Assembly (NCBI GenBank): GCA_030682655.1
Contig: JAUXNU010000112.1
Span: 2,175-66,174, forward strand
Length of the DNA: 64,000 nucleotides
From: Actinomycetota bacterium
GTDB lineage: Bacteria; Actinomycetota; Coriobacteriia; Anaerosomatales; JAUXNU01
Reading direction: 5' to 3'
Positions 24,759 to 49,051 of this stretch are shown here, one piece after another. The position numbers were made by a program, and so were the translations under genes. Under the pieces are notes generated by a model that was not told the origin of the DNA, made no database searches, and saw only the letters and a list, made by a program, of their open reading frames with translations. Within the stretch, counting starts at the first letter, position 1. The number at the start of each line of letters is the position of its first letter.

Positions 24759-24766
24759 GTAGCGCC

Positions 24767-25351: not shown

Positions 25352-25354
25352 CCC

Positions 25355-26350
25355 GTGGCCCGCACGCGCGTCATAGCCGATCCGATCAGATATGGCTTCG
25401 CGGTCGGCCGCGTCCGCGTTCTCGAGACGAGGTTGCTGAGCCGGTCTCACTTCGAGCGTCTGCTCGACGCCCCCTCCTTCGTCGAGCAGAAGCGCGTGTT
25501 GTCCGAGACCGTCTACGGGGGCTATCTCGAGTCGGCGACGACCGCGGACGACGTGGAGCGTGCGGTTGATCACGCACTAGCCGATGTCTACGAGGACTTC
25601 CTCGAGAGCGCGAACCTCCCGGCAAGCATGGTCAAGTTCTTCCGCACGCAGCACGATTTCGAGAACCTGCGCGGCATGCTCAAAGCGGAGGCTGTGGGCA
25701 TCCCAGCCGATGACCTCCTCAACGACCTGGGAAGCATACCTGCCGAGGACTTCCTGTCGGGGAATCTTCCGCAGCGGCTCGCGAAGATCGAGCGCCGCGT
25801 GCGTGCGAAGATCGAGCGCGACGACGAGACGCTGCCGGTCGACCTCGTGGATCCCGCCGTTGATGCCGAGATGTACGTGGAGATGTGCGAGGTGGCGGGA
25901 GAGTCCACGAGCGAGCACATACGTGAGATTGCGCAACTGGGGTCCGATTTGGCCAACATCAAGGCATTCCTTCGCACGCGGTCACGCAACATGCCCGTGG
26001 CCGAGGCCGAACGGTTCTTCGTACCGTGTGGCCATGTGCCTATCGCGAGGTTCATCGCGCTGTACCGGCTGCCGCTTGCCGATGCCGCTGCGCAACTGGC
26101 AGCGTTGCCGGCCCTGAGAGTCGCGGACCCGGCGGCGCTGCTGGATCCCGGTCGCGTCGACGTGCTGGTCGACGTTGCACTCGCGCGCGCACTGCGCGGC
26201 GCGCTCATGGTTGCGATCGGCCCCGAGCCGGTCATCGGGTATGTGTACGCGCGACGCGCTGAAGCATCGATGCTGCGAATGCTGCTCATTGGCAAGTTGT
26301 CCGGCGTGAGAACCGACGTGCTGCGCGCCCGGCTAAGGGACGTGGCCTGA
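25355..26350 (+). CDS. ntpC: V/A-type ATPase subunit C (d subunit)
   Basis: About 330-aa all-helical protein at the conserved position between E and F. YGFAVGRVRVLETRLL start is typical. Confidence 0.8.
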   Translation: MARTRVIADPIRYGFAVGRVRVLETRLLSRSHFERLLDAPSFVEQKRVLSETVYGGYLESATTADDVERAVDHALADVYEDFLESANLPASMVKFFRTQHDFENLRGMLKAEAVGIPADDLLNDLGSIPAEDFLSGNLPQRLAKIERRVRAKIERDDETLPVDLVDPAVDAEMYVEMCEVAGESTSEHIREIAQLGSDLANIKAFLRTRSRNMPVAEAERFFVPCGHVPIARFIALYRLPLADAAAQLAALPALRVADPAALLDPGRVDVLVDVALARALRGALMVAIGPEPVIGYVYARRAEASMLRMLLIGKLSGVRTDVLRARLRDVA

Positions 26351-26682
26351 TGTCTGCATCGGCGCAGATCGCCGTTGTGGGAGACGGAACGAGTGTGGCG
26401 GGGTTTCGCCCGCTGGGCTTCACGGTGTTTGCGGTGCGTGAGGCCGCCGACGCGCGTGGCCTGTGGCGAGACCTCTCGAGCGGGAAGTACGCGGTGGTGT
26501 TCGTGACAGAGCCCGTGTGGGATGCCATCTCGGACCTCGCAGCTGAGGTGCTCGACAAGGCGGTTCCCGCCGTGACGGTGATTCCGGGGGCGGGCAGTCC
26601 CGGAGGACTTGGACAGAAGAGACTCGATCGCGCCATCGAGCGCGCACTTGGAACGACGGTACTGATCCGGGAAGAGGACTGA
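26350..26682 (+). CDS. ntpF: V/A-type ATPase subunit F
   Basis: 110 aa, IAVVGDGTSVAGFRPLGF..VVFVTE pattern. ATG overlaps the subunit C stop. Confidence 0.85.
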   Translation: MSASAQIAVVGDGTSVAGFRPLGFTVFAVREAADARGLWRDLSSGKYAVVFVTEPVWDAISDLAAEVLDKAVPAVTVIPGAGSPGGLGQKRLDRAIERALGTTVLIREED

Positions 26683-26686
26683 GTTC

Positions 26687-28552: not shown

Positions 28553-29998
28553 ATGGAACGCGAGTACATGACAACACGCGACATCGTCGGCCCGCTACTG
28601 CTGGTCGAGGACGTAGAAGGCGTCACTTACGGAGAGCTTGTCGAGCTCGACTTCCCGGACGGGACTCACTCGCTCGGGAACGTGCTCGAGGTGAACGGCG
28701 ACGTCGCTCTCGTGCAGGCGTTCCAGGGCACACAGGGCTCGAATCCGAGCGAGACAAAAGTGCGCTTCCTTGGCCGGGGCATGACGCTTGGCGTGTCGCG
28801 CGACATGCTGGGCCGCGTGTTCGACGGCCTCGGTCGCCCGCGCGATGGCGGCCCCGAGATCCTGCCCGACGTGCGGCTCTCGATCCACGGCGCGCCGATC
28901 AATCCGACCGCGCGAGACTTCCCTGACGACTTCATCCAGACAGGCGTCTCTTCGATCGACGGACTCAACCCGCTCGTGCGCGGGCAGAAGCTGCCGATCT
29001 TCTCGGCCTCGGGCCTTCCGCACAACCAGCTGGCGGCGCAGATCGCGCGCCAGGCAGCCGTTCTCCAGCGGTCCGACGACCCGACGAAAGTCGGTGCCAA
29101 GATGGAGGGCGAGTTCGCGGTCGTCTTTGCGGCCATGGGAATCACGTTCGAGGACGCCGACTTCTTCTCGAGCGAGCTGCGCAACACCGCGGCCATCGAG
29201 CGCGCGGTGCTCTTCCTGAACCTCGCGGACGACCCGGCCGTCGAGCGTATCGCGACCCCGCGCATGGCGCTCACCGCAGCCGAGTACCTCGCGTACGAGT
29301 GCGACATGCACGTGCTCGTCATTCTCACCGACATGACCTACTACTGCGAGGCGCTGCGGGAGGTCTCTGCCGCGCGCAAGGAGGTCCCCGGTCGTCGCGG
29401 GTATCCCGGCTATCTCTACACCGACCTCGCGACGCTGTATGAGCGTGCCGGCCGCATCAAGGGGCGCAAGGGCTCCATCACGCAGATCCCGATCCTGTCG
29501 ATGCCCGAGGACGACAAGACGCACCCCATCCCCGACCTGACCGGCTACATCACCGAGGGCCAGATCATCCTCGATCGCAACCTGCACCGCCGTGGCGTCT
29601 ACCCGCCGGTCGCAGTCCTGCCGTCGCTGTCTCGTCTCAAGCAGAAGGGCATCGGCCCGGGCAAGACGCGAGAGGACCACGCGGACCTCAGCAACCAGCT
29701 GTTTGGCGCCTACGCCCGTGGCATCCAGGCCAAGGAGCTCGCAATCATCCTCGGCGAAGCAGCTCTGTCCGAGTCGGACAAGGCGTTCGTTGCGTTCGCC
29801 GATGCATTCGAAGATCGCTTCATCCGGCAGGGCGAGCACGAGGAGCGCACCGTCGAGGAGACCCTTGCGATCGGCTGGGAGCTCGTTGCGCTGCTGCCTC
29901 GCAGCGAAGTCAAGCGCATCAAGGACGAGTTCGTCGAGAAGTACCTGCCCGTCGACGAGCTGGCAGAAGAGCCGGTCGCCGAGGAGGTCAGTGCGTGA
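28553..29998 (+). CDS. ntpB: V/A-type ATPase subunit B
   Basis: [69 protein letters not shown]. Confidence 0.95.
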
Positions 29999-30186
29999 CG
30001 CTGGCGCCCTGGATAGCGCTCTTTGTGCTCGTTGCGCTGCTCGGCGCGATGCAGGTCGTAGGCGTGCGCGCTCTCGAAGCGTGGGGCGTGCAGCCCTCGC
30101 GGGCAGTCGTGGCGCTTCGTGCGGTGAACTTCATGGCCGTGGTCGTGGTGGTCGCATACGCCGTGTGGTGGAAGGTGGCGAGGTAG
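29995..30186 (+). CDS. Hypothetical 63-aa two-TM protein wedged between ntpB and ntpD
   Basis: GTG overlaps the ntpB stop (GTGA). Its stop lies 1 nt before the ntpD start. Two hydrophobic helices ([31 protein letters not shown]). Could still be a chance ORF in GC-rich DNA. Confidence 0.4.
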
Positions 30187-30187
30187 C

Positions 30188-30832
30188 GTGGCGCAGTTGC
30201 GGGTGAACCCCAACCGCATGGAGCTGCTCAAGCTCAGGCGTCGCCGCGCCGTGGCCGAACGAGGACACAAGCTGCTCAAAGACAAGCTTGACGAGCTCAT
30301 GAAGGAGTTCCTTGGCAGGATCGGCCAGAGCCGCAAGGTGCGCGGAGCGGTCGAACGCGAGCTGGCGGGCGCTTACGGCATGTTCGCCATCGCGCGCGCA
30401 GAGGCAGGACGGGCGAACCTGGCGCAGGCGCTTTCCGCCGGACAGCCGGTGGGTCTTGTCGATGTCGTCGAGCGCAATGTCATGAGTGTTCGCATCCCGC
30501 ACTACACTCCGCTTCCCATGCCGCAGCCGGGCGGCTACTCGCTCGTCGCGACGCCGGTGGTGCTCGACGCAGCGCTCGATTCTTTGGCCGAGGTCGCGCC
30601 AAGGCTGATCGATCTTGCCGAGCGCGAGAAGGCGATCGAACTGCTCGCCGCCGAGATCGAGACCACGCGCCGACGCGTGAACGCGCTCGAGCACGTTCTG
30701 ATCCCGCAGCTGGCCGAGGCCATCCGGGACATCGGCATGAAGCTGGAAGAGGCGGAGCGAGGCAACCTGACGCGGCTGATGAAGGTCAAGGACATCATCG
30801 CTGCCCAGGAGGCCCGTGGGGCAGACCGATAG
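30188..30832 (+). CDS. ntpD: V/A-type ATPase subunit D (central stalk)
   Basis: VNPNRMELLKLRRRRAVAERGHKLLKDKLDEL and a C-terminal coiled coil. Confidence 0.9.
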   Translation: MAQLRVNPNRMELLKLRRRRAVAERGHKLLKDKLDELMKEFLGRIGQSRKVRGAVERELAGAYGMFAIARAEAGRANLAQALSAGQPVGLVDVVERNVMSVRIPHYTPLPMPQPGGYSLVATPVVLDAALDSLAEVAPRLIDLAEREKAIELLAAEIETTRRRVNALEHVLIPQLAEAIRDIGMKLEEAERGNLTRLMKVKDIIAAQEARGADR

Positions 30833-31108: not shown

Positions 31109-31600
31109 CTACGGCGTCGAGGCGAATGACTCGGGGTGGCGAAGCGCGCTCACCTCTGCGAAGACGTCCTCGGCCAGCTTCTCCCGAACGAGGAGCCGCT
31201 CGATGAGCGCGTCGGTCTTGCGAATCCGCTTGCTCATCCGCTCAAGGAACTGGAGTGCGATCTCCGGGTTCGCACGGATCCCCGCTTCGAGATCCTTGCG
31301 GGATACCTTCCGGAGCTGGACGTCGCCGACTGCGGTTGCAGTCGGCGAGCGACGCGCCACATCAAACAGCGCCATTTCGCCGAAGAACGCGCCGGGGCCG
31401 ATCTCGGCCAGCGGAGTCACGATCTCTTCCGATTCGTGCGTCGCCGTGCGCGTACGCCGGATTCGCCCGGATTCGACAACGAACATGGAGCGGCCCGGTT
31501 CGTTCTCGGAGAAGACAACAGCGCCGTCTTCGAACTGCTTGATTCGTCCGACATCCTCAAACACTACTCTGTCCACTCGTACTCGGCTTCCGTACCCCAA
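31109..31600 (-). CDS. Stand-alone cyclic-nucleotide-binding (cNMP/CAP-effector) domain protein
   Basis: FGEMALFDVARRSPTATAVG phosphate-binding cassette with the beta-roll upstream. No HTH or other output domain. TTG start preceded by GAGAGGAAG, 45 nt after the MrpA-like gene. Confidence 0.8.
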   Translation of the reverse strand: MGYGSRVRVDRVVFEDVGRIKQFEDGAVVFSENEPGRSMFVVESGRIRRTRTATHESEEIVTPLAEIGPGAFFGEMALFDVARRSPTATAVGDVQLRKVSRKDLEAGIRANPEIALQFLERMSKRIRKTDALIERLLVREKLAEDVFAEVSALRHPESFASTP

Positions 31601-31645: not shown

Positions 31646-34396
31646 CTAGGTGATTCCCGCCATCGCCGTCAGGACGAAGACGAGCAGCATCGCAATCGCA
31701 ATCCCGACGTTGAGACCGATGTCACGCACATAGCGCTGGATGGCGAGGCGGGCGCTCGCGAGGCGCCTGTTGTCCATGTGATCGTCGATTATCCAGGGGA
31801 TGCGCTCCTGGATGATCGACTCGATCACGGTGGTGGCCGTGTCCGAGAGCCAGCCTCCCGCTCTCTCGATCTTGGTGAGGCCTCCTGCGCGGTAGGCCGA
31901 TACGACTTCTTGGCTTGGAACGGCCTGGCCGACACGGTGCCCGAGCCGGGCTGCCGCGAGCGATCCGGCCTGGTAGGCGGATGCGACTTCCTCTCTTGGA
32001 ACGGCCTGGCCGACACGGTGCCCGAGCCGGGCTGCCGCTTGCGATGCACTCCACGAAGGAATCGATTCGCGAATGAGCACATCGAATCTCTCTTTGGCCA
32101 TGATGTCGTTCATCTCGCGAGCTATCTCGCGCAGGATGTTTTCGCCTCTCATGCGCCGTGGCGCGAGTTCGAGAGCGAGGTCGGTGACGGGTTGCCGCCA
32201 CTTCTCCACGCGGATCATGGATTCGTTGAGTGCTACCCTGAGAGGCTCGATCCGACCGGTTCGGGCGAGCTCCGCCACCGCGTCGATTCGCTCGTCGAAC
32301 AGCCGGGTGGCCATGTACATGGCGGTATCGCGGACCGAGTTCACGTACTGCTGCCGAAGCGCCTCGTCCATGTCGCGGGAGTTCTCGGCCTTCATGACGG
32401 CGGCATCGACGGCATGCCGCACGGTCTCGTGACGCTCACGCTCGATGATGACGTACGCGGTCTCGATGAACTGCTGGTGTCGGAGTCCCGGTGCCCCTGT
32501 TCCGAGCGTCACGATCACCCGCCGCCAGTTTCGCTGGATTCGCACGCCATAGCGGGAGGTCATACGCAGCGTGCGTATGATTGCCCTTGACATGAAGCCC
32601 GTGTATGCCTCGTAGGACTGGTTGGCCGAAACGCAGAAGGCCAGGAATGCCCTTGCCGTGCGGCGATACCAGTAGTCGATGCTGAGCCACGCCGGGAAGT
32701 GCGCGTGGAAGAGCCCGAAGCGTACACCGACGATCACCACCGTTGTGCCTATTGCGAACGCGATGAGCACAGCCATCAGGTCCCCGCCAGCGAACAGCAC
32801 GAAGTGGTCCAGAATCTCAGAGTGCAGGCCCCATGTGTGCAGGCCGGGTGATATCACGCCCTTCAGCATCAGGTTCGGTGCGAGACCGAGGGCTACGATC
32901 GGTACCGCCAGTGCGCCCATCGCAACGAGCATCCGAGCAGGGGCGTCCTTCACGCCGGGGAACTCCTGCTTCGGTTTGCCAAGGAAGACGAACACGATGA
33001 GCTTGATGAACGAGGCCGCCGTTCCTCCGCAGGTGAGCACGAAGATCTTCTCGGCGACGGACAGCGCAGTAGCCTGTCTAGCCAGCCCCGTGGAGTGGGC
33101 CGCGTGCGCGAGGTGGGAGGCATGCTCGACCGCCTCGACGAGCCCATGGTGCAGGAGGGTCTTGCTGACGAAACCGTTGAACAGCGGCACGCCTGTGATG
33201 CCGCATGCCGCAATCAGCGTAAACAGAAACGTCAGCGGCATCTTTTTCCACAGTCCGCCGAGCTTGTACATGTTGAGCTCGTGCGTGCGGAAGTACACTG
33301 CTCCCACGCCAAGGAAGAGGCAGGCCTTGAATAGCGCGTGGTTGACGATGTGGTACAGCCCGCCAGCGAAGCCCATGGCCCCGTGCGCCCCAAGGTACCC
33401 GGCGACACCGATGCCGGTGATGATGAAGCCCATCTGACTCACGCTGTGATAGGCGAGCATCCGCTTCGCGTTCTCTTGCAGAAGCGCGAGCACCACACCG
33501 ATGAACATCGTCGCGATGCCGATCCAGATGACGGCGAAGCCCAGCTGCGTCGTGAAGTGCCACAGCTCCTCGGCCACCTCTTCCATGATCGGAGGTCGGA
33601 ACAGTGCTGTCACCACGCGGAAGATGCCGTACGCCCCTGCCTTGATCATGATGCCGGAGAGCAGAGCGCTGGCCGGAGAGGGGGCCACCGGATGCGCGTC
33701 AGGAAGCCAGACATGCACCGGCACGATACCCGCTTTGACTCCGAAACCTACGATCATGAGGATCGCAGCGGCCCACATGAGCAGCTCTTGCCCCTCCGCC
33801 ATGGGCACGGGTCCCAGATGGCCGGTCGAGCCGAGCCCGAATGTGATGAAGATGCCAGCGACCAGGGCGAACCCGCCCATCACCGTCATCCAGAGGTACT
33901 TGGTCGAGGCCTTCAGGGCCTCCGGCGTCTCGGTGTGGACCACGAGCCAGTACGCGAGAAGGCCCAGGGCCTCGAAGAACAGATAGAGAGAGATGAGATC
34001 GCCGGCGAGCACCACGCCCATGTTTGCCCCGAGTACGGCCAGGTTGACCGTGAAGTACCGGTCGCGCTTCTGCTCGTGCTGCATGTAGGAGCCGGCATAA
34101 AGAGTCGATGCCATCCAGACGAACGACGTGAACAGCGCGAAGAACATCCCGAACGAGTCGACCTCGAAGGTGATGTGCCCGAGCAGCACCGGGATCTTCG
34201 AGCCGACTATGTGGTGCTCCGCCACAAGCGGTATGAGTGCTACCGAGCCAAGGAAGGTGAGGCCCGTGACGACAACGGCGAACCAGTTCCGCAGCGGCTC
34301 AGAGCGACGACCGAGAGGTCGCGCCAGCAGCGCCGCCGCGAACGGCAACGCGACAATCGCCGCCGGAATCGCGCTGTATGTCACGTGGCTCTCCAC
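31646..34396 (-). CDS. MrpA/NuoL-like antiporter subunit (916 aa) with atypical long C-terminal extension
   Basis: Proton-pump core motifs (LYLFFEALGL, VHVWLPDAHPVAPSPASALLSG, HIVNHALFKACLFL). GTG 34396 follows AGGAGG. Residues from about 560 to 916 are non-TM helical sequence ending in a single TM helix. Confidence 0.8.
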   Translation of the reverse strand: MESHVTYSAIPAAIVALPFAAALLARPLGRRSEPLRNWFAVVVTGLTFLGSVALIPLVAEHHIVGSKIPVLLGHITFEVDSFGMFFALFTSFVWMASTLYAGSYMQHEQKRDRYFTVNLAVLGANMGVVLAGDLISLYLFFEALGLLAYWLVVHTETPEALKASTKYLWMTVMGGFALVAGIFITFGLGSTGHLGPVPMAEGQELLMWAAAILMIVGFGVKAGIVPVHVWLPDAHPVAPSPASALLSGIMIKAGAYGIFRVVTALFRPPIMEEVAEELWHFTTQLGFAVIWIGIATMFIGVVLALLQENAKRMLAYHSVSQMGFIITGIGVAGYLGAHGAMGFAGGLYHIVNHALFKACLFLGVGAVYFRTHELNMYKLGGLWKKMPLTFLFTLIAACGITGVPLFNGFVSKTLLHHGLVEAVEHASHLAHAAHSTGLARQATALSVAEKIFVLTCGGTAASFIKLIVFVFLGKPKQEFPGVKDAPARMLVAMGALAVPIVALGLAPNLMLKGVISPGLHTWGLHSEILDHFVLFAGGDLMAVLIAFAIGTTVVIVGVRFGLFHAHFPAWLSIDYWYRRTARAFLAFCVSANQSYEAYTGFMSRAIIRTLRMTSRYGVRIQRNWRRVIVTLGTGAPGLRHQQFIETAYVIIERERHETVRHAVDAAVMKAENSRDMDEALRQQYVNSVRDTAMYMATRLFDERIDAVAELARTGRIEPLRVALNESMIRVEKWRQPVTDLALELAPRRMRGENILREIAREMNDIMAKERFDVLIRESIPSWSASQAAARLGHRVGQAVPREEVASAYQAGSLAAARLGHRVGQAVPSQEVVSAYRAGGLTKIERAGGWLSDTATTVIESIIQERIPWIIDDHMDNRRLASARLAIQRYVRDIGLNVGIAIAMLLVFVLTAMAGIT
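31891..32052. repeat. In-frame tandem duplication, 2 x 81 bp, inside the MrpA-like C-terminal extension
   Basis: Units 31891-31971 and 31972-32052 share a 41-nt identical core (31917-31957 = 31998-32038). They encode AARLGHRVGQAVPREEVASAYQAGSLA / AARLGHRVGQAVPSQEVVSAYRAGGLT. Confidence 0.9.
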
Positions 34397-34414: not shown

Positions 34415-35905
34415 CTACGGCAATGTCTCGGCGGCGAGCTTTGCGAGCGAGAGCGGTAGTCCGGGAGCCCACGCGAAGATTCCAAGGACGACGGTGAGTG
34501 CGGCTCCGGCCAGTAGCGGACCGAGCATCGTCCAGGGGGCTTCGAGTCGGGTCGTAGCCTCTGGGAGATCGCGCACGATCGGCGACGGCTCCTTCAGGTA
34601 GGCGGCGTAGACGATGGGAAGCAGGTACACGGCGGCAAGCAATGCCCCGCCAAGGAGCACCGCCAAGTACCAGGGCTTTTCCGCGTCGAGGATGCCGAGG
34701 CCCAGATACCACTTGCTTGTGAAGCCGGAGAGCGGCGGCGTGCCGATCATCGAGAGAGCTGTGAGAGTGAAGACGCCCATAGTGATGGGATGCTGCTTGG
34801 CGATTCCGGCCATCTCGCTCACCTTGTGAACGCCCGCCCGCTTTATCACGATGCCGACGCAGAAGAACAGCGTCGCCTTCATGAACGCGTGGTTGGCGAT
34901 GTGGACCAAAGCGCCGGTCGTTGCGTTGACGCTCAGAAGCGATGCGCCGAAGATCACGTATCCCATTTGGCTGATGGTGGAGTAGGCGAGTCGACGTTTG
35001 AGGTTGTCCTGGGCTACGGCGAGCACGGCGGCGGTGATAATGGTCGCTGCGGCGATCAACCCCAGCGGGACCGCCACGCCGAGCTCCCTTAGCAGCGGGA
35101 TGCCGAAGACGTTGTGAATCACCCGCAGGATGCCGAAGCTGCCGGCTGCCACCATGATTCCGGACAGGACCGCTGAGAAAGGTGCCGGAGCGGCGGGATG
35201 TGCGTCGGGTACCCACCCGTGCAACGGCATGAGGGCCGCCTTGACGCCGAAGCCCGCGATGAAGCACCAGAAGACGGCGAGCAATGCCGTCCTGCTGGAC
35301 TTGGATGCGGCGAAGAACGCGGTGCGTCCGAACTCCTGCGAGTCGGCGAGGAAGTACGTTCCCATGATGGCGAGCAGCACGAAACCGCTGCCGATGATGA
35401 TGTAGGTGATGTACTTCGTGCCGGCCGCCATCGCCTCGGGCGTCTGCTCGTGGACTACGAGCGGATAGGTGAGTATCGAGAACAGCTCGTAGAAGACCAG
35501 GAACGACAGCAGGTTGCCGGCAAAGGCGACACCAAAGGTCCAGGAAAGCGCCAGCATGAGGAAGGAGAAGTAGCGGTTCTTGCGGTGCCCGTCTGCCATG
35601 TACCCGATCGAGAAGACTACCGCCAGCAGCCATAGCACGCTCGCCGTGATCGCGAAGAGCACGCCGAGGGGGTCGACACGGAGGTGCATCCAGATGGTAG
35701 GCGTCATCTGGAACATGCGCATCCCGTATGTCTCGCCCTCGAGCGCTCCCGGTATGAGCAACGCCACGAGTCCGGTCACGAGTGTGACCACGAAGACCAG
35801 GCCGACCGCGCGAGCACGCTCCGAAATCCTCGACAGCGGAACGACGAGAGCTGCGCCGAGCATCGGCAAGAACACCACTGCGGGGAGTACTGCTGAGGGA
35901 TTCAT
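34415..35905 (-). CDS. mrpD: MrpD/NuoN-like antiporter subunit (copy 3)
   Basis: FYELFSILTY, HGWVPDAHPAAPAPFSAVLSG, HIANHAFMKATLFF. 14 predicted TM helices. Confidence 0.85.
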   Translation of the reverse strand: MNPSAVLPAVVFLPMLGAALVVPLSRISERARAVGLVFVVTLVTGLVALLIPGALEGETYGMRMFQMTPTIWMHLRVDPLGVLFAITASVLWLLAVVFSIGYMADGHRKNRYFSFLMLALSWTFGVAFAGNLLSFLVFYELFSILTYPLVVHEQTPEAMAAGTKYITYIIIGSGFVLLAIMGTYFLADSQEFGRTAFFAASKSSRTALLAVFWCFIAGFGVKAALMPLHGWVPDAHPAAPAPFSAVLSGIMVAAGSFGILRVIHNVFGIPLLRELGVAVPLGLIAAATIITAAVLAVAQDNLKRRLAYSTISQMGYVIFGASLLSVNATTGALVHIANHAFMKATLFFCVGIVIKRAGVHKVSEMAGIAKQHPITMGVFTLTALSMIGTPPLSGFTSKWYLGLGILDAEKPWYLAVLLGGALLAAVYLLPIVYAAYLKEPSPIVRDLPEATTRLEAPWTMLGPLLAGAALTVVLGIFAWAPGLPLSLAKLAAETLP

Positions 35906-35930: not shown

Positions 35931-37406
35931 TCACAATCCGAAGAAGTACTCTACTGCCGTTCGAGCCAGGGACAGAGGCATCCCCGGGACCTCGGCGAAG
36001 CTGCCAAGCAGAATCACGTACACGGCGCAGATGAGCGTTGGGAGGAGCAACATCCAGTGGGCCTCCTTGATATGGAGGCTCGTACCGGGCGGTACCTTGA
36101 AGAACGCCATGTAGATGATCGGAAGCCAGTACGCGGCGTTGAGTATCGAACTCGTAATCAGCACGACAACGAATACCCAGCCGCCCATCTCCATCGCACC
36201 GAGAGACAGGTACCACTTGGTGATGAACCCTGCCGTGAGAGGCACGCCGATGAAGCCGAGGGCGGCGACGGTGAATGCTCCCATGGTAAACGGCATCTGA
36301 TACCCGATGCCGGCGAACTCGTGGATGTTCGTGCGTCCGGTTGTTTTCTGGATGGCCCCGGCAACGAAGAACATGGTGATCTTCATGAACGCCTGGTTAG
36401 CGATGTGGACGATTGCGCCAAGCGCTGCCAGGGGGGTTAGCAGCGCGGCGCCAAGGATGATGTAGGAGAGCTGGCTGATTGTCGAATATGCGAGGCGTCG
36501 CTTGAAGTTGTCCTGGGTCAGCGCGATCGCGGACGCCATGACGATCGTGAACGATGCGGCGGCGGCAAGCCACACGCCGATACCGAGCTCCCTCAGCAGC
36601 TCCACGCCAAAGACGCAGAACACGACGCGCAGTATGCCATAGACCCCGGCCTTCACAACGGCCACTGCGTGCAGAAGGGCGCTAACCGGCGCCGGAGCGA
36701 CCATTGCCGACGGCAGCCATCCGTGCAGCGGCATGATCGCGGCCTTCACGCCGAACCCGATGATGAACGCCGCGAACAGGAGTGTGAGCCCCTGTGTGCC
36801 CGCCGAGATGTCGAGGATTCCTCGCCCGCTAAGCGTGAGCGTTCCCGCCCACTGGTAGGTGACAGCGGTGGCGAGCAGCACGAACACACCGCCGATGAGC
36901 GTGTATGCGAGGTACTTGCGGCCAGCCGCCATCGCCTCCGGAGTCTCCTCGTGCACGACCAGTGGATACGTGCAGATTGTGAGCATCTCGTAGAAGAGGA
37001 ACAGTGTGAGGAGGTTCTCGGCAAACGCGATACCGACCGTGGTCGACACGCACAAGGCGAAGAAGCCGAAGAAGCGAGCCTGCTCGTGCTCATTCTTCAT
37101 ATAGCCGATTGCGTAGAGGGTCGTGATCAACCACAGCGTCGATGAGACGAGAGTGAAGAACATTGCGAGTGCATCGACCCTGAATGCTAGACCGATGCCA
37201 GGCGTGAACTCGACGAGCGAGTATCTGTAGACTGTGCCGGCCAGCACGCCTGGCAGCATCGAGAAGATGAGGACGAGCTTGACGGCCGCAGTACTCAGGC
37301 TCCAGAAAGCCCTCCAGAAGGGACGTGAACCACCGAAGAACATCAGAAGTCCGCACGCGAGTGATAGCGCCGGTGCGAGGAGCGGTCGAATATCCCATAC
37401 TTCCAT
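35931..37406 (-). CDS. mrpD: MrpD/NuoN-like antiporter subunit (copy 2)
   Basis: FYEMLTICTY, HGWLPSAMVAPAPVSALLHA, HIANQAFMKITMFF. Confidence 0.85.
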   Translation of the reverse strand: MEVWDIRPLLAPALSLACGLLMFFGGSRPFWRAFWSLSTAAVKLVLIFSMLPGVLAGTVYRYSLVEFTPGIGLAFRVDALAMFFTLVSSTLWLITTLYAIGYMKNEHEQARFFGFFALCVSTTVGIAFAENLLTLFLFYEMLTICTYPLVVHEETPEAMAAGRKYLAYTLIGGVFVLLATAVTYQWAGTLTLSGRGILDISAGTQGLTLLFAAFIIGFGVKAAIMPLHGWLPSAMVAPAPVSALLHAVAVVKAGVYGILRVVFCVFGVELLRELGIGVWLAAAASFTIVMASAIALTQDNFKRRLAYSTISQLSYIILGAALLTPLAALGAIVHIANQAFMKITMFFVAGAIQKTTGRTNIHEFAGIGYQMPFTMGAFTVAALGFIGVPLTAGFITKWYLSLGAMEMGGWVFVVVLITSSILNAAYWLPIIYMAFFKVPPGTSLHIKEAHWMLLLPTLICAVYVILLGSFAEVPGMPLSLARTAVEYFFGL

Positions 37407-37407
37407 G

Positions 37408-38892
37408 TCAACCCCCGATGGGCGCCAGCATGCTTCTTACGGCGGGCTCGATGAAACTGAGCGGGATTCTGCCGAAGATCCCCATGACGAGACAGAGAAT
37501 CGCAAGCACGACGACGGGCACAAGCATGGAGATGGGAGCCTCGCCCACCTCCAGGATCTCCGGGTGCGTTGGGGCCATGAAGTAGAACGCATTCACCATC
37601 CGGATGTAGTACACGAAGATCAGCAGCGCACCGAAGAGCAGGAGGATCGCGAACAAGAGCCTCCCTGCCTCAATGGCGCCCAGGGCGATGTACCACTTGC
37701 AGAGGAAGCCTGCCGTAGGCGGGATACCGACGATCGATATCGCGCCGATCGCGATTGCCGCCGTTGTGATCGGCATGGCTTTGCCGATTCCCCGGAGATC
37801 TCGAAGATTGCGATAGCCGGTCTGGTGGATCAGAGCTCCTGCCCCAAGGAAGAGTGTCGCCTTGATCAGCGCGTGGTTGAAGATGTGCACCGATGCACCC
37901 ATGATTCCGAACGGTGAAGCGAGACCCAGTCCCATGAAGATGTAACCGATGTTGGAGATTGTCGAGTAGGCGAGCATCATCTTGATGTCCTCTTGGACCA
38001 TCGCGAACAGCGCGCCCGTGACGATTGAGATCGCGCCTAGCCACATGAGCACGGTATTGAGCGATGAGAGGTCGAACAACTGAGCCGCATACAGGATCTG
38101 GAACATCCGCAACATGCCGAGCACGCCGATCTTGACCACGAGGCCCGACAGGATGGCACTCACCGGTCCGGGGGCGATCGAGTGTGCGTCGGGCAACCAG
38201 ATATGGAGGGGGAACACCGCCGCTTTCATTGAGAATCCCAGCGTGAGCGCGGCTACCGCAACGGCCGCGGGGAAGGGCGCGACACCCCCAAGTCTCGTTG
38301 CCAGGTCCGTCATGTTCAGCGTACCGGTCAGGGAGTACAGCAGGCCGATGGCGAGCAGGACACACAGCGACGAGATTGCCCCCATGATCAGGTACTTGAA
38401 GCCGGCGAGTTCCGCGATGCGCTCACCCGTTATCGCAACCAGCGCGTAGCCGGCGAGCGAGAGGACCTCGAGGAACACGAACATATTGAAGATGTCGCCG
38501 GTGACCGCGAAGCCGTTCATTCCTCCAAGGCAGAGCAGCACCAGCGCGTAGTAGTACGGAATCCTCTGCTCGGGGATGGCGTGTTTCGCATAAGCCAAGG
38601 AGAACAGGAGCGCGAGCCAGCCAACGAGGCAGATGACCCCGATGGAGACGCTGAACTCATCGAACCGCAGCTCGATGCCTAGCGGCGGTGCCCAGCCGCC
38701 CATGTGATACGAGAAGGATCCCTGCGTCGACACACGGTAGGAGAGTACGACCGCCGCCAGGGAGACGATGCTGAACACGAACAGCGCCCAGTATCCTGCG
38801 AGCTGGGTCCGATATCTCCCGACTATGGGAGTAAGAGCGGCGCCGACGAGAGGGGTGATGATGAGTACCACGGGCCACTGGCCGCCACCCAT
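37408..38892 (-). CDS. mrpD: MrpD/NuoN-like antiporter subunit (copy 1)
   Basis: FLEVLSLAGY, HIWLPDAHSIAPGPVSAILSG, HIFNHALIKATLFL. Confidence 0.85.
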   Translation of the reverse strand: MGGGQWPVVLIITPLVGAALTPIVGRYRTQLAGYWALFVFSIVSLAAVVLSYRVSTQGSFSYHMGGWAPPLGIELRFDEFSVSIGVICLVGWLALLFSLAYAKHAIPEQRIPYYYALVLLCLGGMNGFAVTGDIFNMFVFLEVLSLAGYALVAITGERIAELAGFKYLIMGAISSLCVLLAIGLLYSLTGTLNMTDLATRLGGVAPFPAAVAVAALTLGFSMKAAVFPLHIWLPDAHSIAPGPVSAILSGLVVKIGVLGMLRMFQILYAAQLFDLSSLNTVLMWLGAISIVTGALFAMVQEDIKMMLAYSTISNIGYIFMGLGLASPFGIMGASVHIFNHALIKATLFLGAGALIHQTGYRNLRDLRGIGKAMPITTAAIAIGAISIVGIPPTAGFLCKWYIALGAIEAGRLLFAILLLFGALLIFVYYIRMVNAFYFMAPTHPEILEVGEAPISMLVPVVVLAILCLVMGIFGRIPLSFIEPAVRSMLAPIGG

Positions 38893-38894
38893 CG

Positions 38895-39245
38895 CTACTC
38901 AACCCCCCACAGGTCGTCGGACTCGATCGTCCCGTACTGCTCGTAGATACGGATGATCAGACTGAGTGCGAGCGCTGTGGTGCTGAATGCGACAACGATG
39001 CCCGTGAGGATGAGGCCCTGGGGAAGCGGATTGGCGAAGGGCGGAGCCGCGCCGTGGCCCATGATCGGAGCATCACCGTCGGTCACGATCCCCGCCGCCA
39101 TGACGAACGCGAAGACCGCAGTCTCGATGATGTTGAGCCCGAGGAGCTTCTTGATGAGGTTGCCCTTGGCGATGATCGCGTAGAGCCCGATAAGGAACAG
39201 CAGGACTGACGCGACGTAGTCGATATTGGCCCACAGTTCCTTCAT
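38895..39245 (-). CDS. mrpC: MrpC/MnhC (NuoK-like) subunit
   Basis: 116 aa, 3 TM. LIKKLLGLNIIETAVFAF and LILTGIVVAFSTTALALSLI. ATGA overlap with mrpB. Confidence 0.85.
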   Translation of the reverse strand: MKELWANIDYVASVLLFLIGLYAIIAKGNLIKKLLGLNIIETAVFAFVMAAGIVTDGDAPIMGHGAAPPFANPLPQGLILTGIVVAFSTTALALSLIIRIYEQYGTIESDDLWGVE

Positions 39246-39958
39246 CCGTTGCTCCCCTCCATGGTCCAGTAGACGGACGCGACGATCGCCGCGCCTCCGA
39301 TTGCAATGCCGGCCTCGATGACCGTGAGGAAGGGAACCCGGAGGAACAGCCACCGGCCATCGATGGGATACGAAAGGTACTCGCCAAGGAGGGCCATTCC
39401 GGCGACCCCGACCACGGCGAACAGGAGCACGGCGGCGGGCTGCAACCACGGGCGGATCCGTTCGGGCAGCAGCTTCTGCGCCTGCTTGCTCCCCTGGACG
39501 AGGCTCGTGGCGATCAGAAGCGCGCCGATGATCGTGCCTCCCTGGAAACCGCCGCCCGGCGTGGAGTGGCCGTATATGACCATGTAGACCGAGAAGACCA
39601 CGATGAATGGCGCCAGCACGCGGACGATGAATCGGGTGACGGGGCTAACCGGGGTTGCGGGCTCGGCGGGCTGTTCCTGCTTGGCGGTACGCGGAATCAG
39701 GAGCACGCCGAAGACGGCCATCATGGCCGTGAAGATGACGGTGACCTCGCCGTCGGTGTCGTAGCCTCTGTAGTTGAGGATGATGGCGGTCACGATGTTC
39801 TCGCATCCGGTCTCCTCCGGGCCCTCTTCGAGGTAGTGCGGGACGATGTGCGTGTAGGTGGGGTTCTCAACCGAGCCGATCGGCGGAAGCAGGGACACGG
39901 CATACAGAAGGGGTACGGCCGCCAGTATCAGCAGCGCCAGGGTGAGTGCGCGTCTCAT
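39242..39958 (-). CDS. mrpB: MrpB/MnhB-domain subunit
   Basis: NIVTAIILNYRGYDTDGEVTVIF and GGGFQGG motifs of the MnhB domain. ATGA overlap with the upstream gene. The ORF-track extension to 40411 is out of context. Confidence 0.8.
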   Translation of the reverse strand: MRRALTLALLILAAVPLLYAVSLLPPIGSVENPTYTHIVPHYLEEGPEETGCENIVTAIILNYRGYDTDGEVTVIFTAMMAVFGVLLIPRTAKQEQPAEPATPVSPVTRFIVRVLAPFIVVFSVYMVIYGHSTPGGGFQGGTIIGALLIATSLVQGSKQAQKLLPERIRPWLQPAAVLLFAVVGVAGMALLGEYLSYPIDGRWLFLRVPFLTVIEAGIAIGGAAIVASVYWTMEGSNG

Positions 39959-40197
39959 CGCTCTCGCCTCGTTGTCCGGGAGACGGCAATGAGGAACAGC
40001 ACCGTCGTGACTCCGGCGCCCACCGCAGCTTCGGTAAGAGCGACGTCGGGCGAACCTCTGAGCTGCCACAGAAGACACATGATGAGGCTGTAGGTCGAGA
40101 AGATGATCGCTGCGGCGAGCAGGTCCTTCGTTCGGATGACCGCCAGTGCGCATGCGATGAGAAGGCCGTAGAGGACCAGGTCGAACGCGCGACTCAT
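39955..40197 (-). CDS. DUF4040 (MbhD / MrpA-C-terminal-like) small membrane subunit
   Basis: 80 aa, SPDVALTEAAVGAGV signature, 3 TM. Confidence 0.75.
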   Translation of the reverse strand: MSRAFDLVLYGLLIACALAVIRTKDLLAAAIIFSTYSLIMCLLWQLRGSPDVALTEAAVGAGVTTVLFLIAVSRTTRRER

Positions 40198-40529
40198 GTC
40201 TGGTCACCGTCCGCCCTTGGGCTGCGCGTCCAGGGGGCAAGCCCCGATCTGAAGGCCGCACGAGCAAGGGCATGGCCTGCAGTGGGGCTCGTGAGGAGCA
40301 CGAACGCCGCAATCGCCAGGATCTTGAAGGCATCGGGTTTGAGTCCCGTGTACACGGCGAGGGCGACCAGGATCGATCCGGCTCCGAGCGTGTCGCATTT
40401 GGTCGCCGCATGAGTCCTTGAGTAGAAATCGGGCAGGCGCAACATGCCGATCGTTCCGACGAGGAAGAAGAAGGCCCCGATGCAGGCGAACACGATGGTT
40501 ATCGCCATTACGATGGGATGTACGTTCAC
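40194..40529 (-). CDS. mrpG: MrpG/MnhG subunit
   Basis: GTIGMLRLPDFYSRTHAATKCDTLG signature. GTG overlaps the mrpF stop (GTGA). Confidence 0.8.
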   Translation of the reverse strand: MNVHPIVMAITIVFACIGAFFFLVGTIGMLRLPDFYSRTHAATKCDTLGAGSILVALAVYTGLKPDAFKILAIAAFVLLTSPTAGHALARAAFRSGLAPWTRSPRADGDQT

Positions 40530-40804
40530 TGCTGCCACTCCTCCTCGAATCGCCCGGTCTCGAGGAATCTCGAGGCAGCGAGCGTTGCCACGAGATTCAG
40601 GAGGGCGTAGACGAAAGCAACATCGATATACAGACCGCGATCGAAGACGAAGGCCAGCAGAACGAGTACGACAAGCGTCTTCGTTCCCACGATGTTCACG
40701 GCGAGGATCCGGTCGACGGCAGTGGGGCCGCGATACGCCCGGTAGAGACAAATGAAGGCATTCACGAGCAGGAAGATAGCCGTTCCCCAGAAGAAGACGT
40801 CCAT
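40526..40804 (-). CDS. mrpF: MrpF/MnhF subunit
   Basis: 92 aa, LYRAYRGPTAVDRILAVN signature. Confidence 0.85.
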   Translation of the reverse strand: MDVFFWGTAIFLLVNAFICLYRAYRGPTAVDRILAVNIVGTKTLVVLVLLAFVFDRGLYIDVAFVYALLNLVATLAASRFLETGRFEEEWQQ

Positions 40805-40808
40805 GCCA

Positions 40809-41285
40809 CTACTCCTCGAAGACCTTGGCGATTATGTGGTCGAGCTTGCGTGAGGCGATGTCGTCGGCGAACTCGCGATCGAGGCAGTGGATGAAGAAGA
40901 CGGAGCCGTCCACGTCTACCGTCAGCGTGCCCGGCGTGAGAGTGATCGAGTTTGCCAGCGCGACTCCGGAGACCGGTCGCTTGAGCGCTGACAGATGCTC
41001 GATGATCAGGGGGTCTATCGGCAGCCTGGGATCAAGCACCTTCTCGGCGACGTAGATGTTGGCCCAGACTATCTCCTTCACCAGGAACCCTACATAGACG
41101 AAGAAGCGTCCCGCTTGACGTAGCGTGAGGTAGGGCGCGTCGTCCTCGGTCCAGAGAGTTCGTTCTGTGAACCAGGCCACGAGCACCGACAGGACGAGGC
41201 CGGTAGCCAGTCCGCTTGGGTTGAATGAGCCGAGTATGAGAACCCAGAAGCCGAACAAGACGATGGAGAGCTGGAGCACGGCCAT
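40809..41285 (-). CDS. mrpE: MrpE/MnhE subunit
   Basis: LANSITLTPGTLTVDVD signature. The ATG shares its A with the TGA of the upstream GGDEF-like gene. Confidence 0.8.
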   Translation of the reverse strand: MAVLQLSIVLFGFWVLILGSFNPSGLATGLVLSVLVAWFTERTLWTEDDAPYLTLRQAGRFFVYVGFLVKEIVWANIYVAEKVLDPRLPIDPLIIEHLSALKRPVSGVALANSITLTPGTLTVDVDGSVFFIHCLDREFADDIASRKLDHIIAKVFEE

Positions 41286-42151
41286 CAGACGCTGCCTTCT
41301 AGCACGCGCTCGACGTGCGGGGCTGCCCCGGTTGCGATCTTGCCCGCCTTCGCCTCGCTCAGACTGGACTGCGCCAGCGCGAGCAGGGATTCGGCGTCGC
41401 ACGCTGGCTCCGGGCAGGTGGCAATGCCCGTGCTTATCGTCTGTCGAGTGACGGGTTCGAGCTCGTCGCCCTCGAACTCGGTACCGGCGACGAGGTTCTC
41501 GAGACGCCGAGCGATCAGATGCGCTTCGTCTTGGGTGCAATGGGGGCAGATGAGCGCGAACACGCCGTCGGCATGTCGGGCAAGCACGTCGGTGCTGCGG
41601 ACCGAGATCTTGGTTACCTCGGCCAGATGCTCAAGGAGCAAGGCGGCCCGATGGCTGCCAAACGTTTCCTTGAATACTTTGATGTCATCCAGTTCGATCA
41701 GCAGAAGCGCCATGCTCCCGCCGTAGCGAGCTCTCCGCCGGGTCTCCTCCTCGAGGCGCGTGGCGAAGTAGCTTTCCGAGTACAACCCGGTGAGCGGGTC
41801 GTACACGGACGTTCTCTCGAGCTCCTGGGCGTGCACTCCCTGTCTCTGGGTGAGGATCCCGACGATCAGGCCCGTCACCAAGAACACAGCCAGCCCGACG
41901 GCGGACTCCGTGACCACATCGGTGGTCAAGCGGGAGGCTGCTGCGAGCGCGTGGAATCCGAGGAGAGCTGCCGTGATGGCGGTCATCAGAATCGCGCCGC
42001 TGGCATGGTAGGTGAGAGCTGCGACTATGACGGGCACGCCGTAGAGGGGCCACAGCCAATGGAACTCACCGGTGAACTGAACGAGGAGTGCGACGAATAT
42101 CGTCGATAGTGCGATAAACAGCAGTCGGTGGAGATGAATTCGTGAAGCCAT
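41285..42151 (-). CDS. Membrane protein with degenerate GGDEF domain (I-site retained, active site lost)
   Basis: 4 N-terminal TM helices, then DPLTGLYSESYF...LLIELDDIKVFKETFG...RSTDVLARHADGVFALI. The start is taken at ATG 42151 (G-run RBS); the ORF track starts at TTG 42175. Confidence 0.75.
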   Translation of the reverse strand: MASRIHLHRLLFIALSTIFVALLVQFTGEFHWLWPLYGVPVIVAALTYHASGAILMTAITAALLGFHALAAASRLTTDVVTESAVGLAVFLVTGLIVGILTQRQGVHAQELERTSVYDPLTGLYSESYFATRLEEETRRRARYGGSMALLLIELDDIKVFKETFGSHRAALLLEHLAEVTKISVRSTDVLARHADGVFALICPHCTQDEAHLIARRLENLVAGTEFEGDELEPVTRQTISTGIATCPEPACDAESLLALAQSSLSEAKAGKIATGAAPHVERVLEGSV

Positions 42152-42205
42152 CACTGCCCCCCCCAATACAAACAAAGCAGTACGGCGGGGGCGTCCACAA
42201 AGCCG

Positions 42206-42211
42206 ATTATA
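42206..42211 (-). promoter_or_regulatory. Candidate -10 box (TATAAT, minus strand) for the GGDEF-mrp operon
   Basis: Perfect TATAAT in a GC-rich intergenic region about 55 nt upstream of ATG 42151. No clear -35. Confidence 0.3.
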
Positions 42212-47635: not shown

Positions 47636-49051
47636 TTTGCTGTGTGTGATCCGTCGGGCGTCGGTCCCTCACGGGGCAGCTCCAGCGTGAAGACCGAACC
47701 CTCACCGAGGGTGCTACGGGCCTCAAGAGCGCCGCAGAGCAACTCAGCAAGGTGCGCCGAAACAGGTAGGCCGAGGCCGGTTCCCGCGGTGTTGCCTGCA
47801 TCGGGGTTCCTCACCTGGTAGAACTCGTCGAACACGCTGTCGAGCTCCTCGGGAGAGATGCCTCGGCCGATGTCTCGCACGGTGAATCACACCCTCGATT
47901 TGTCGGGGCAATCCACCTCGATCGTCGCGGACCCGTGTGAGGTGAATCTCACGGCATTCGACAGCAGATTGAGCAGGATCTGCTCGAACCGCATCTTGTC
48001 GGCCACGATCTCGCCGCATCCCGGTGGGATTTGCGCTCGCAGCTCCAGACCCTTCGCGTCGGCCGCCGGGAGCAGGGTCGCAACGAGCCGTCCGACGACC
48101 TCCGCGATGTCGACCACCTCCGGGCTCAGAGTCACCTGCCCGGCCTCGATCTTCGACAGATCGAGAATCTGATTGATGAGTCCGAGCATGTGCTTCCCGG
48201 AGTTGCTGATCATCCCGGTCTGCTTGAGTTGCTCGTCGTTCATCGGACCCGCCAACCCCTGTGCGAGGATTCCCGAGAAGCCGATTATCGAGTTGAGCGG
48301 CGTGCGCAGCTCGTGGCTCATCGCCGAGAGGAATTCGCTCTTGGCTCGGCCCGCCGTCTCGAGTTCTGCCGTGCGTTCGGTCACCAGCCGTTCGAGATGG
48401 GTGTGGTACTCTTCCAGTTCTCGTTTCTTGTCCTCCAAGACGACGAGTGTCGTGGAGAGTTCCAGCACGACCAGGAAGATCGCCCCAAGCATTGCCACAG
48501 CGGTCGTGACTATCCACGGCCACACAGGCGTGGGCTTGTCCGGCGCGAAACTACTCGGGAGCCAGATGATCGCAGACAGTCCGGCCCGCCCCAAAGAAGC
48601 CCACCAACCAGTAGTAGGCGTGCCCTCCGACTCGAATGAACTCGCGGCGATGAAGCAGCCCATACGCTGCCGGGGCTGTTAGTGCGAGCATCTGGGCGAG
48701 CGTGCCCAGGGCTCTGGAGTTTAGGACGGCCAGGAACAGGACGAGCAGGAGCGTGCAGATTGCGAGGATGGCCAAGCACGCGCGCGCGGCCGAGAACGCA
48801 ATGAAGTACGAGAGGGCTCCGGCGACGAGAAGCAGGACCCCGGCAAGCATGGTCATCTCGAAGAGTGCGCCCCACAGGCCGCCGGCGGTCTCCGAGGCAA
48901 GGTAGAAGAGGGGTGACAGGCCGAAGAGAACCCAGCCGAGGGTGAACAGATAGAGGTAGCGGGGCTCTCGCCTTCTGATGTAGATCTCGACGGGGAAGGG
49001 AAGCACTACGAAGCACGGCGCGGCAAATACGTACATCGCATACTCGAGCAT
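47617..49051 (-). pseudogene. Membrane sensor histidine kinase, disrupted (in-frame TGA plus probable frameshift)
   Basis: H-box SHELRTPLN and N-box LLNLLSNAVRFT, then TGA at 47887-47889, then in the same frame FTVRDIGRGISPEEL..GTGLGLPV (G1/G2). The 5-TM N-terminal part (48551-49051) is in another frame and overlaps by about 110 nt. A 1-nt indel in the G/C run near 48585-48596 would fuse them. Alternatively, the TM protein is a separate gene. Confidence 0.65.

Follow-up and report, generated by a model that had tools for sequence, protein, structure and literature searches.

What might a GGDEF protein that has lost its catalytic motif be doing at the head of an operon for a multisubunit antiporter? 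The question is raised by a 64,000-nucleotide stretch of contig JAUXNU010000112.1 (positions 2,175 to 66,174; hereafter the window, meaning the whole of this stretch) from an Actinomycetota bacterium of the class Coriobacteriia, in which a minus-strand gene for a 288-residue membrane-anchored GGDEF protein stands directly ahead of mrpE. From sequence comparison and gene order, we propose, with a probability of roughly 0.55, that this dead, membrane-anchored protein may be a lineage-specific accessory subunit or regulator of the 11-gene Mrp-like cation/proton antiporter complex that senses cyclic di-GMP (c-di-GMP) by way of an inhibitory site (I-site) it has kept. The features on which the argument turns are as follows, all on the minus strand.

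41285-42151, minus: first gene of the operon, membrane-anchored degenerate GGDEF protein, 288 amino acids (open reading frame and translation, stop codon included)
41837-42151, minus: N-terminal membrane domain, residues 1-105, 3-4 helices, DUF4118-like (KdpD-type) (hydropathy, AlphaFold2, weak Pfam match)
41336-41836, minus: stalk helix and GGDEF-fold domain, residues 106-272 (Pfam match 116-269, Foldseek)
41588-41599, minus: RSTD, R185-D188, primary I-site RxxD (aligned to WspR RSSD; codons checked)
41558-41572, minus: ADGVF, residues 194-198, in place of the GG[DE]EF hairpin (HMMER alignment to WspR and DgcR GGEEF)
41504-41506, minus: R216, secondary I-site arginine, at the position of PleD R390 and PelD R402 (alignment; codon checked)
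41453-41476, minus: FEGDELEP, residues 226-233, acidic loop peculiar to the family, between helix alpha3 and the strand that follows

The GGDEF fold and its former catalytic site

That the protein has a GGDEF fold, as an earlier note on this DNA had claimed, is borne out by both sequence and predicted structure. Pfam GGDEF (PF00990) matches residues 116-269 with E = 2.4e-24 (86.4 bits against a cutoff of 23.8), and the NCBIfam model TIGR00254 gives E = 2.8e-24 (85.7 bits against a cutoff of 37.4). A Foldseek search with the AlphaFold2 model retrieves GGDEF crystal structures such as 3ign and 4urs, at a root-mean-square deviation (rmsd) of 1.4-1.5 A, E ~1e-12 and a TM-score, normalised by target, of ~0.9; a sequence match above threshold and a nucleotidyl-cyclase-like fold both place the 288-residue protein in the GGDEF superfamily. 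Ahead of this domain, the N-terminal 105 residues are hydrophobic and are predicted by hydropathy and AlphaFold2 to form 3-4 membrane helices: the model (predicted local distance difference test score 88) has helices at residues 2-27, 34-70 and 77-116, the last of which continues as a stalk into the GGDEF domain. The match of the membrane domain to DUF4118 is weak (E = 5.7e-4, under the Pfam cutoff), this family (PF13493) is found in precomputed annotations of relatives P0283-P0288, and W34, P40 and G98 are invariant across the degenerate family described below. A chance or misannotated open reading frame was ruled out by a third-position GC content of 0.77, the Pfam E value of 2.4e-24 and orthologs at 61-85% identity; the product is 100% identical to an NCBI protein (P0001) from a metagenome-assembled genome (MAG).

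In the alignment to WspR made with HMMER, RSTD falls on RSSD and RHADGVF on RYGGEEF, and the codons of ADGVF were verified one by one at 41558-41572. Compared with GG[DE]EF, both glycines and both acidic residues are gone. This agrees with the earlier note, which had described an RxxD kept as RSTD beside a GGDEF replaced by ADGVF, and the sequence strings that it cited, DPLTGLYSESYF, LLIELDDIKVFKETFGSHRAA and RSTDVLARHADGVFALI, are present in the translation. It had also allowed for a functional GG(D/E)EF lying elsewhere; motif search and alignments find none anywhere else in the 288-residue protein.

The remaining catalytic positions were mapped by a constant offset of 174 relative to PleD, together with alignments to WspR, DgcR and canonical homologs; the PleD sequence on which the offset is built is consistent with its published numbering. 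Conservation at each position was then computed over 31 full-length family members, with a median pairwise identity of 37% and a minimum of 27%, giving a mean of 1.47 bits for the domain. The correspondences are:

E153, equivalent to PleD D327, metal binding: 1.97 bits, residues E/R/Q/A/D/G/H/K
K161, equivalent to PleD N335, guanine binding: 2.62 bits
A170, equivalent to PleD D344, guanine binding
The four GGEE positions: 2.3-2.7 bits
K268, equivalent to PleD K442, phosphate binding: 2.75 bits
I272, equivalent to PleD R446, phosphate binding: 3.24 bits
R216, equivalent to PleD R390, secondary I-site arginine: 0 bits

The substrate and metal regions are therefore non-canonical, as the note had it, with E, K and A at the equivalents of PleD D327, N335 and D344. 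The KxxGRN phosphate motif (PleD K442/R446) reads AKAGKI, and the protein lacks every feature expected of an active cyclase: GG[DE]EF, the metal aspartate, and the guanine-binding and phosphate-binding residues. Catalytic positions drift at 1.4-3.2 bits against the domain mean of 1.47; within the ADGVF hairpin only F198 is invariant, and no member of the degenerate family is canonical there. No constraint is left on the catalytic motif, on either metal-binding acid or on the residues that bind base and phosphate, all of which have been lost, and to judge from these replacements the protein is almost certainly catalytically dead.

A residual enzyme, that is, a diguanylate or other nucleotidyl cyclase working with a non-canonical active-site motif, might still be entertained given the intact fold (AlphaFold2, Foldseek) and the reported activity of some non-GGDEF motifs such as AGDEF (PMC3974145). 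Here, however, the glycines and acidic residues of the motif have gone and the equivalents of D327, N335, D344, K442 and R446 are all replaced; moreover, the catalytic positions vary so freely among orthologs that no alternative set of catalytic residues is conserved. We regard this explanation as very improbable.

Directly behind the former A-site hairpin, the usual 'lLPet' is replaced by CPHC, a DsbA-like CxxC at residues 202-205 (41537-41548, minus strand). As a family-wide redox motif it was rejected, being confined to clade 1, with LPHC in two members and PHA or PYA in clade 2.

Conservation of the I-site and linkage to mrp

While the catalytic positions have drifted, the product-binding I-site has not. 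RSTD ends exactly five residues ahead of the former GGEEF position, which is the canonical spacing, and D188 lies 28 residues from R216, the same distance as between D362 and R390 in PleD. The triad R185/D188/R216 corresponds to R359/D362/R390 of PleD and to R367/D370/R402 of PelD. R185, T187, D188 and R216 are each invariant in 31/31 family members, so that the entropy of the triad is 0 bits. As 23/161 positions of the GGDEF domain are invariant in this set, three positions named in advance would all be invariant in ~0.3% of cases if invariant positions were random. The I-site triad is under strict purifying selection, and both sequence hallmarks of an I-site receptor are present, namely an RxxD five residues upstream of the motif and a secondary arginine on helix alpha3. 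The positions released from constraint have had time to randomise and the I-site is unchanged, which strengthens the case for a receptor. Binding of c-di-GMP by the window protein is predicted on these grounds, with the odds somewhat in its favour.

The closest functional analogue is PelD. The triads R367/D370/R402 of Pseudomonas aeruginosa PelD and R363/D366/R395 of its Bacillus cereus counterpart are required for c-di-GMP binding as measured by isothermal titration calorimetry, alanine at each triad residue abolishes binding, and for the B. cereus protein the dissociation constant (KD) is ~100 nM; through this I-site PelD exerts post-translational c-di-GMP control over the Pel polysaccharide synthase (PMC7112168). 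In streptococci, which are without c-di-GMP signalling, PelD has lost its GGDEF domain altogether (PMC7112168), and the retention of an intact I-site in the family studied here is meaningful in that light. Both proteins combine a membrane anchor with a degenerate GGDEF domain that carries RxxD and a downstream arginine, and the gene of each belongs to the operon for the machine that it serves or may serve. They differ in that PelD has a GAF domain between anchor and GGDEF, an exopolysaccharide synthase as partner and proven c-di-GMP binding, whereas in the window protein a DUF4118-like domain is joined via a stalk helix to the GGDEF domain, the partner is of Mrp type and binding is predicted. 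Orthology to PelD was rejected: there is no GAF match, the neighbours are mrp genes, and no PelD chain appears among the sequence matches in the PDB or the top 50 structural matches, from which we see no specific homology to PelD beyond the shared domain.

A second invariant element lies between helix alpha3 and the next strand. In the acidic loop FEGDELEP, residues F226, E227, G228, D229, L231, E232 and P233 do not vary within the family (consensus FEGD[E/A]LEP), and the loop is a candidate Mrp-docking or cation-sensing element.

The earlier note had placed the GGDEF gene first in an mrp operon, and Mrp subunit genes do run downstream of it on the same strand:

40809-41285, minus: mrpE (Pfam MNHE, E = 8e-32)
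40526-40804, minus: mrpF (Pfam MrpF_PhaF, E = 2.6e-15)
40194-40511, minus: mrpG (Pfam PhaG_MnhG_YufB, E = 7.5e-30)
39955-40197, minus: MbhD-like small membrane subunit (Pfam MbhD, E = 7.5e-23)
39242-39961, minus: MbhE/MnhB (MrpB-like) subunit (Pfam MnhB, E = 8.5e-22; MbhE, E = 5e-9)
38895-39245, minus: MrpC (NuoK-like) subunit (Pfam Oxidored_q2, E = 1.2e-24)
37408-38892, minus: MrpD-like antiporter subunit 1 (Pfam Proton_antipo_M, E = 5e-66)
35931-37406, minus: MrpD-like antiporter subunit 2 (Pfam Proton_antipo_M, E = 2e-56)
34415-35905, minus: MrpD-like antiporter subunit 3 (Pfam Proton_antipo_M, E = 4e-58)
31646-34396, minus: MrpA/D-like subunit, 916 amino acids (Proton_antipo_M, E = 3.5e-56, residues 131-422)

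The junction with mrpE reads GTC TGATG GCC: the TGA of the GGDEF gene occupies 41287-41285 and the mrpE ATG 41285-41283, with the A at 41285 common to both, which is the one-base overlap that had been claimed.

How far is this arrangement shared? A word-indexed protein search returned 14 close relatives at 61-100% identity, all from MAGs or metagenomes, with the next matches at or below 30%; the weaker matches examined (P0015-P0060, excluding P0032 and P0052) all have the canonical RxxD, five residues and GG[DE]EF. That search overlooked a whole clade at 33-41% identity, recovered through MrpE anchoring and the FEGD[EA]LEP motif, so that 14 homologs is not a safe figure for family size. On the contigs of four relatives (P0007, P0008, P0012 and P0013) the GGDEF gene lies directly ahead of the same 10-gene mrp cluster. 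An MrpE-anchored scan of one-genome-per-species contigs gave 17 loci, 10 of which, all from Actinomycetota/Coriobacteriia MAGs, have the GGDEF gene immediately upstream of mrpE; six of these ten form a second clade, 36-38% identical to the window protein. The gene is absent in the other seven loci (L018-L024), which are from Clostridia/Ruminococcaceae and have MrpE proteins of 30-33% identity, and the idea that it is a component of all MbhD-type mrp clusters was ruled out on this basis. A motif-seeded metagenome scan added 15 family loci, in which the genes for MrpE, then MrpF, MrpG, MbhD, MnhB and MrpC follow as far as the contig reaches, and in which the end of the GGDEF open reading frame overlaps the mrpE start or lies within a few bases of it (outside the window, gene or reading-frame ends were compared with the starts of genes or tblastn matches).

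In total, the GGDEF gene is directly upstream of MrpE-F-G-MbhD-MnhB-MrpC in ~30/30 independent family loci (L001-L006, L008-L017, L025-L039 and L047), and in most cases its stop codon overlaps the mrpE start. Presence in orthologous operons, on which the earlier note had made its proposal depend, is thus seen at the head of all ~30 loci of the lineage, the gene being absent only from the distant Clostridia clusters. What lies upstream changes from locus to locus, so that the gene is linked to mrp rather than to a wider region, and a functional link between the GGDEF protein and Mrp is very probable.

When 1.84 billion cluster representatives were searched exhaustively with a profile and matches were aligned, the degenerate proteins emerged as a branch of a larger set of four-transmembrane (4TM) GGDEF proteins of ~280-300 amino acids, with a common membrane motif and an FEGDxxxP loop. 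Many of these relatives keep RxxD, five residues and GGEEF, as well as DxD, ND, GHxxGN and KxxGR, and on account of these motifs look like working cyclases. Seven relatives outside the degenerate clade can be compared:

P0269: loop FEGDVENP; 88 nucleotides upstream of the same mrp cluster
P0271: loop FEGDIEQP; upstream of mrp with one small DUF6812 gene between
P0138: loop FEGDEVDP; convergent with and abutting a 939-residue MrpA-like gene
P0274: loop FEGDREQP; last gene, behind three antiporter-subunit genes
P0286: loop lost in a six-residue deletion; adjoins a ROK-family gene, no mrp
P0280: FEGGKGEP at the loop; adjoins a ROK-family gene, no mrp
P0015: no loop; unrelated context

Mrp linkage is found in 4/4 of those with the FEGD loop and in 0/3 of those without it; a linkage general to GGDEF proteins with a similar membrane domain was rejected on the evidence of P0015, P0286 and P0280. 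The four linked proteins, uncharacterised and from Actinomycetota MAGs, are the closest by sequence outside the degenerate clade, and resemble the window protein in length (278-295 amino acids), membrane motif, FEGDxxxP loop, RxxD, R216 and an adjoining mrp cluster. They differ from it in their intact catalytic motifs and in a looser mrp linkage, whereas the degenerate clade overlaps mrpE, as does a further degenerate member, P0281; by gene arrangement, it is the degenerate forms that appear to be tightly, translationally coupled to mrpE. Since intact relatives are likewise linked to mrp, the association predates the loss of catalysis, and the window protein is best seen as the degenerate descendant of an Mrp-linked cyclase. 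By descent, then, its closest relatives are the Mrp-linked 4TM-GGDEF cyclases, not PelD. The earlier proposal of a membrane-embedded c-di-GMP receptor or assembly factor, and not a cyclase, agrees with the predicted membrane helices and gains from a triad that is invariant while the A-site drifts and that PelD requires for binding; it needs amending as to origin: the protein is not an independently arisen receptor.

Two further observations concern the intact relatives. In two loci (L044, 6875-7132; L045, 6874-7131) a small DUF6812 gene (85 amino acids) separates the canonical GGDEF gene from mrpE. The Mrp-linked intact-GGEEF relatives (P0269-P0280 and P0138; loci L041-L046) have GHxKGN, with asparagine at the position of the guanine-binding D344 of PleD; variation at this position sets apart the Hypr GGDEFs that make cyclic GMP-AMP. 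The nucleotide made by the intact relatives, and sensed at the I-site, may possibly be other than plain c-di-GMP.

These relatives also lend something to an explanation in which Mrp is the input, the membrane domain and acidic loop sensing Na+, K+, pH or the state of Mrp and the dead GGDEF domain pairing with an active cyclase from another locus and thereby controlling c-di-GMP synthesis. DUF4118 is a KdpD-type membrane domain, GGDEF domains function as dimers, and the most obvious role for canonical relatives that look like cyclases and sit at the same place would be to report Mrp or ion status. No partner cyclase is known, however, and such a sensor leaves the strict conservation of the triad unexplained while the dimer-facing A-site hairpin drifts; the tight coupling to mrpE also suggests stoichiometric co-assembly over a signalling relay. 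We consider an ion or pH sensor improbable.

A possible route from c-di-GMP to the Mrp-like complex

If the protein is a c-di-GMP-sensing subunit or regulator, a mechanism can be sketched from known I-sites. The protein would be made in step with MrpE and anchored in the membrane beside or within the Mrp-like complex. An intercalated c-di-GMP dimer would be bound by RxxD and R216, as in PleD, WspR and PelD, and might serve to cross-link a pair of domains, as it does in PleD and WspR. Once bound, it would reposition the cytoplasmic domains relative to the stalk helix and membrane domain, and this in turn would modulate the activity, assembly or stability of the complex. The membrane helices, together with the invariant acidic FEGD[E/A]LEP loop, might make the contact. 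The ancestor would have been an Mrp-associated diguanylate cyclase with a product-binding I-site; in this lineage synthesis would have been lost, sensing kept and translational coupling to mrpE gained.

Each element has a precedent. PleD, WspR and DgcR have in common with the window protein the fold (rmsd 1.4-4 A), the position of RxxD, the R390-type arginine and a stalk leading into DxLTG; they are active cyclases whose I-site serves product inhibition, whereas the window protein is without GGEEF, the metal aspartate and the equivalents of N335, D344, K442 and R446, and its input module is a membrane domain, not a receiver domain. PopA of Caulobacter crescentus descends from a PleD-like cyclase and acts as an I-site effector with a degenerate GGDEF domain; it is soluble, has receiver domains and targets proteins for proteolysis. 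Its route from cyclase to effector, with the A-site lost and the I-site kept, is the same as that proposed here, but unlike the window protein it is without a membrane or transport link. On the transport side, c-di-AMP controls the cation/proton antiporters CpaA of Staphylococcus aureus and KhtTU of Bacillus subtilis. Among known systems they come closest to a cyclic dinucleotide that acts directly on a cation/proton antiporter, but differ in messenger (c-di-AMP), in receptor fold (RCK_C) and in that the transporters are single-gene and CPA-type, not multisubunit Mrp.

The type of receptor is already known; it is the partner machine, an Mrp-type antiporter, that is new, and the literature searched contains no link between Mrp antiporters and GGDEF proteins or c-di-GMP, only unrelated co-mentions. 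c-di-GMP is known chiefly for switching between motile and biofilm states, those of its receptors known to have a degenerate GGDEF domain act on polysaccharide synthases, proteolysis adaptors and the like, and direct control of cation/proton antiporters has so far been the territory of c-di-AMP. Were the proposal to hold, ion and pH homeostasis and bioenergetics would join the direct outputs of c-di-GMP, which would gain a new class of target in a complex-I-related ion-translocating machine. The canonical Mrp complex has seven subunits, MrpA-G (PMC9070056); the GGDEF protein is without homology to any of these (its Pfam matches are GGDEF and, weakly, DUF4118) and would be an eighth, regulatory subunit for an Mrp complex, the first dedicated one for Mrp research. 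Intact, partly degenerate and fully degenerate forms beside the same machine would moreover make a natural series that could show the change from enzyme to receptor. A broader and distinctly more speculative possibility is that a hitherto unrecognised family of small membrane GGDEF proteins wires c-di-GMP to multisubunit Mrp, the intact members serving as local sources of c-di-GMP coupled to the antiporter, the degenerate ones gating or assembling the complex in the role of I-site receptors, and FEGDxLEP being the docking or cation-sensing element.

Several points weigh against a c-di-GMP-sensing subunit. The canonical GGEEF relatives also keep RxxD and R216, and the invariance of the triad could for that reason be in part an inherited structural constraint; the presence of RxxD is by itself no guarantee of c-di-GMP binding. 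Physical association with Mrp we infer from gene order only, and the tracking of Mrp association by the FEGD loop outside the degenerate clade appears in small numbers, four linked against three unlinked. All sequences come from uncultured MAGs and metagenomes. Lastly, no GGDEF, EAL, HD-GYP or PilZ domain was found with Pfam in 38 other open reading frames of the window, mostly of at least 160 amino acids, and the organism might not make c-di-GMP at all; this is the main weakness of the proposal.

Some of the same facts would suit a nucleotide-independent structural or assembly subunit, in which the dead GGDEF domain is a cytoplasmic scaffold that docks on the Mrp-like complex or assists its assembly and the triad forms internal or interface salt bridges, for instance with FEGDELEP or an Mrp subunit. 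Strict synteny and translational coupling fit such a role, as do the invariant acidic loop only a few residues beyond the helix that bears R216 and the lack of c-di-GMP turnover genes among the reading frames scanned in the window; other degenerate GGDEFs, CsrD and the GGDEF domain of LapD, function without binding c-di-GMP. Yet what is conserved is the exact triad, at the exact spacing, by which PleD and PelD bind c-di-GMP, the Mrp-linked relatives with intact GGEEF point to ancestors that made it, and PelD dropped the whole GGDEF domain where c-di-GMP signalling is absent (PMC7112168). We therefore hold a purely structural subunit to be unlikely, if the most serious of the competing explanations, and prefer the c-di-GMP-sensing accessory subunit or regulator.

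Gene start, operon composition and surroundings

The GGDEF gene starts at an ATG at 42151 on the minus strand and ends with the TGA at 41287-41285. Translation could also begin at a TTG at 42175, but the ATG fits, since all orthologs open with M[AGS]SRIHLHR. An eight-G run that precedes the ATG is likely to be the ribosome-binding site. Upstream lie a PmbA/TldD gene and an NlpC/P60 gene, and the leader between PmbA and the GGDEF gene is 205 nucleotides long. An Rfam search of this leader (E <= 1) found no riboswitch, of c-di-GMP type or other, and a scan for sigma-70 promoters and terminators around the gene gave nothing that exceeds shuffled expectation. A perfect TATAAT, seen by eye, stands at 42206-42211 (minus strand), 55-60 nucleotides upstream of the ATG; the scan gave no matching -35 element.

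Further upstream, a 258-residue protein at 47887-48663 (minus strand) has a HisKA match only, with no HATPase_c at E <= 1e-4, and a LytTR-type response regulator is encoded elsewhere in the window at 13884-14726 (plus strand); neither has an obvious connection to the operon.

The cluster itself follows an Mbh-style order, E-F-G-MbhD-MbhE/B-C-D, and codes for four antiporter-like (MrpA/D-type) subunits, where canonical Mrp complexes have two; a hydrogenase or oxidoreductase module is not adjacent to it. The 916-residue subunit (888-939 amino acids in its orthologs) carries a C-terminal, mostly helical soluble extension of ~430 amino acids followed by a terminal membrane helix. The lateral helix of NuoL or MrpA is much shorter than this extension, which could serve as a docking platform; within the extension an 81-nucleotide tandem repeat (27 amino acids) is present in 1.9 copies at 31891-32045.

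At the 3' end, the cluster adjoins a gene that is probably the last of the operon, its membership being tentative:

31109-31600, minus: stand-alone cNMP-binding protein, 163 amino acids (Pfam cNMP_binding, E = 6e-20)

It shares the strand of the last mrp gene and lies 45 nucleotides downstream of it, and a cNMP-binding gene (~150-163 amino acids) is also found behind the cluster in L001 (from 20576), L002 (from 20492) and L006 (from 11312). Given this recurrence, the operon may have a second-messenger-binding module at either end. In L004 the place of the cNMP-binding gene is taken by an NhaA-type antiporter gene. A V/A-type ATPase operon at 22282-30832 (plus strand; the scan covered subunits I, c, C/AC39, A, B and D) runs convergently towards the mrp cluster in the window from its 3' side, which places two ion-translocating machines side by side.

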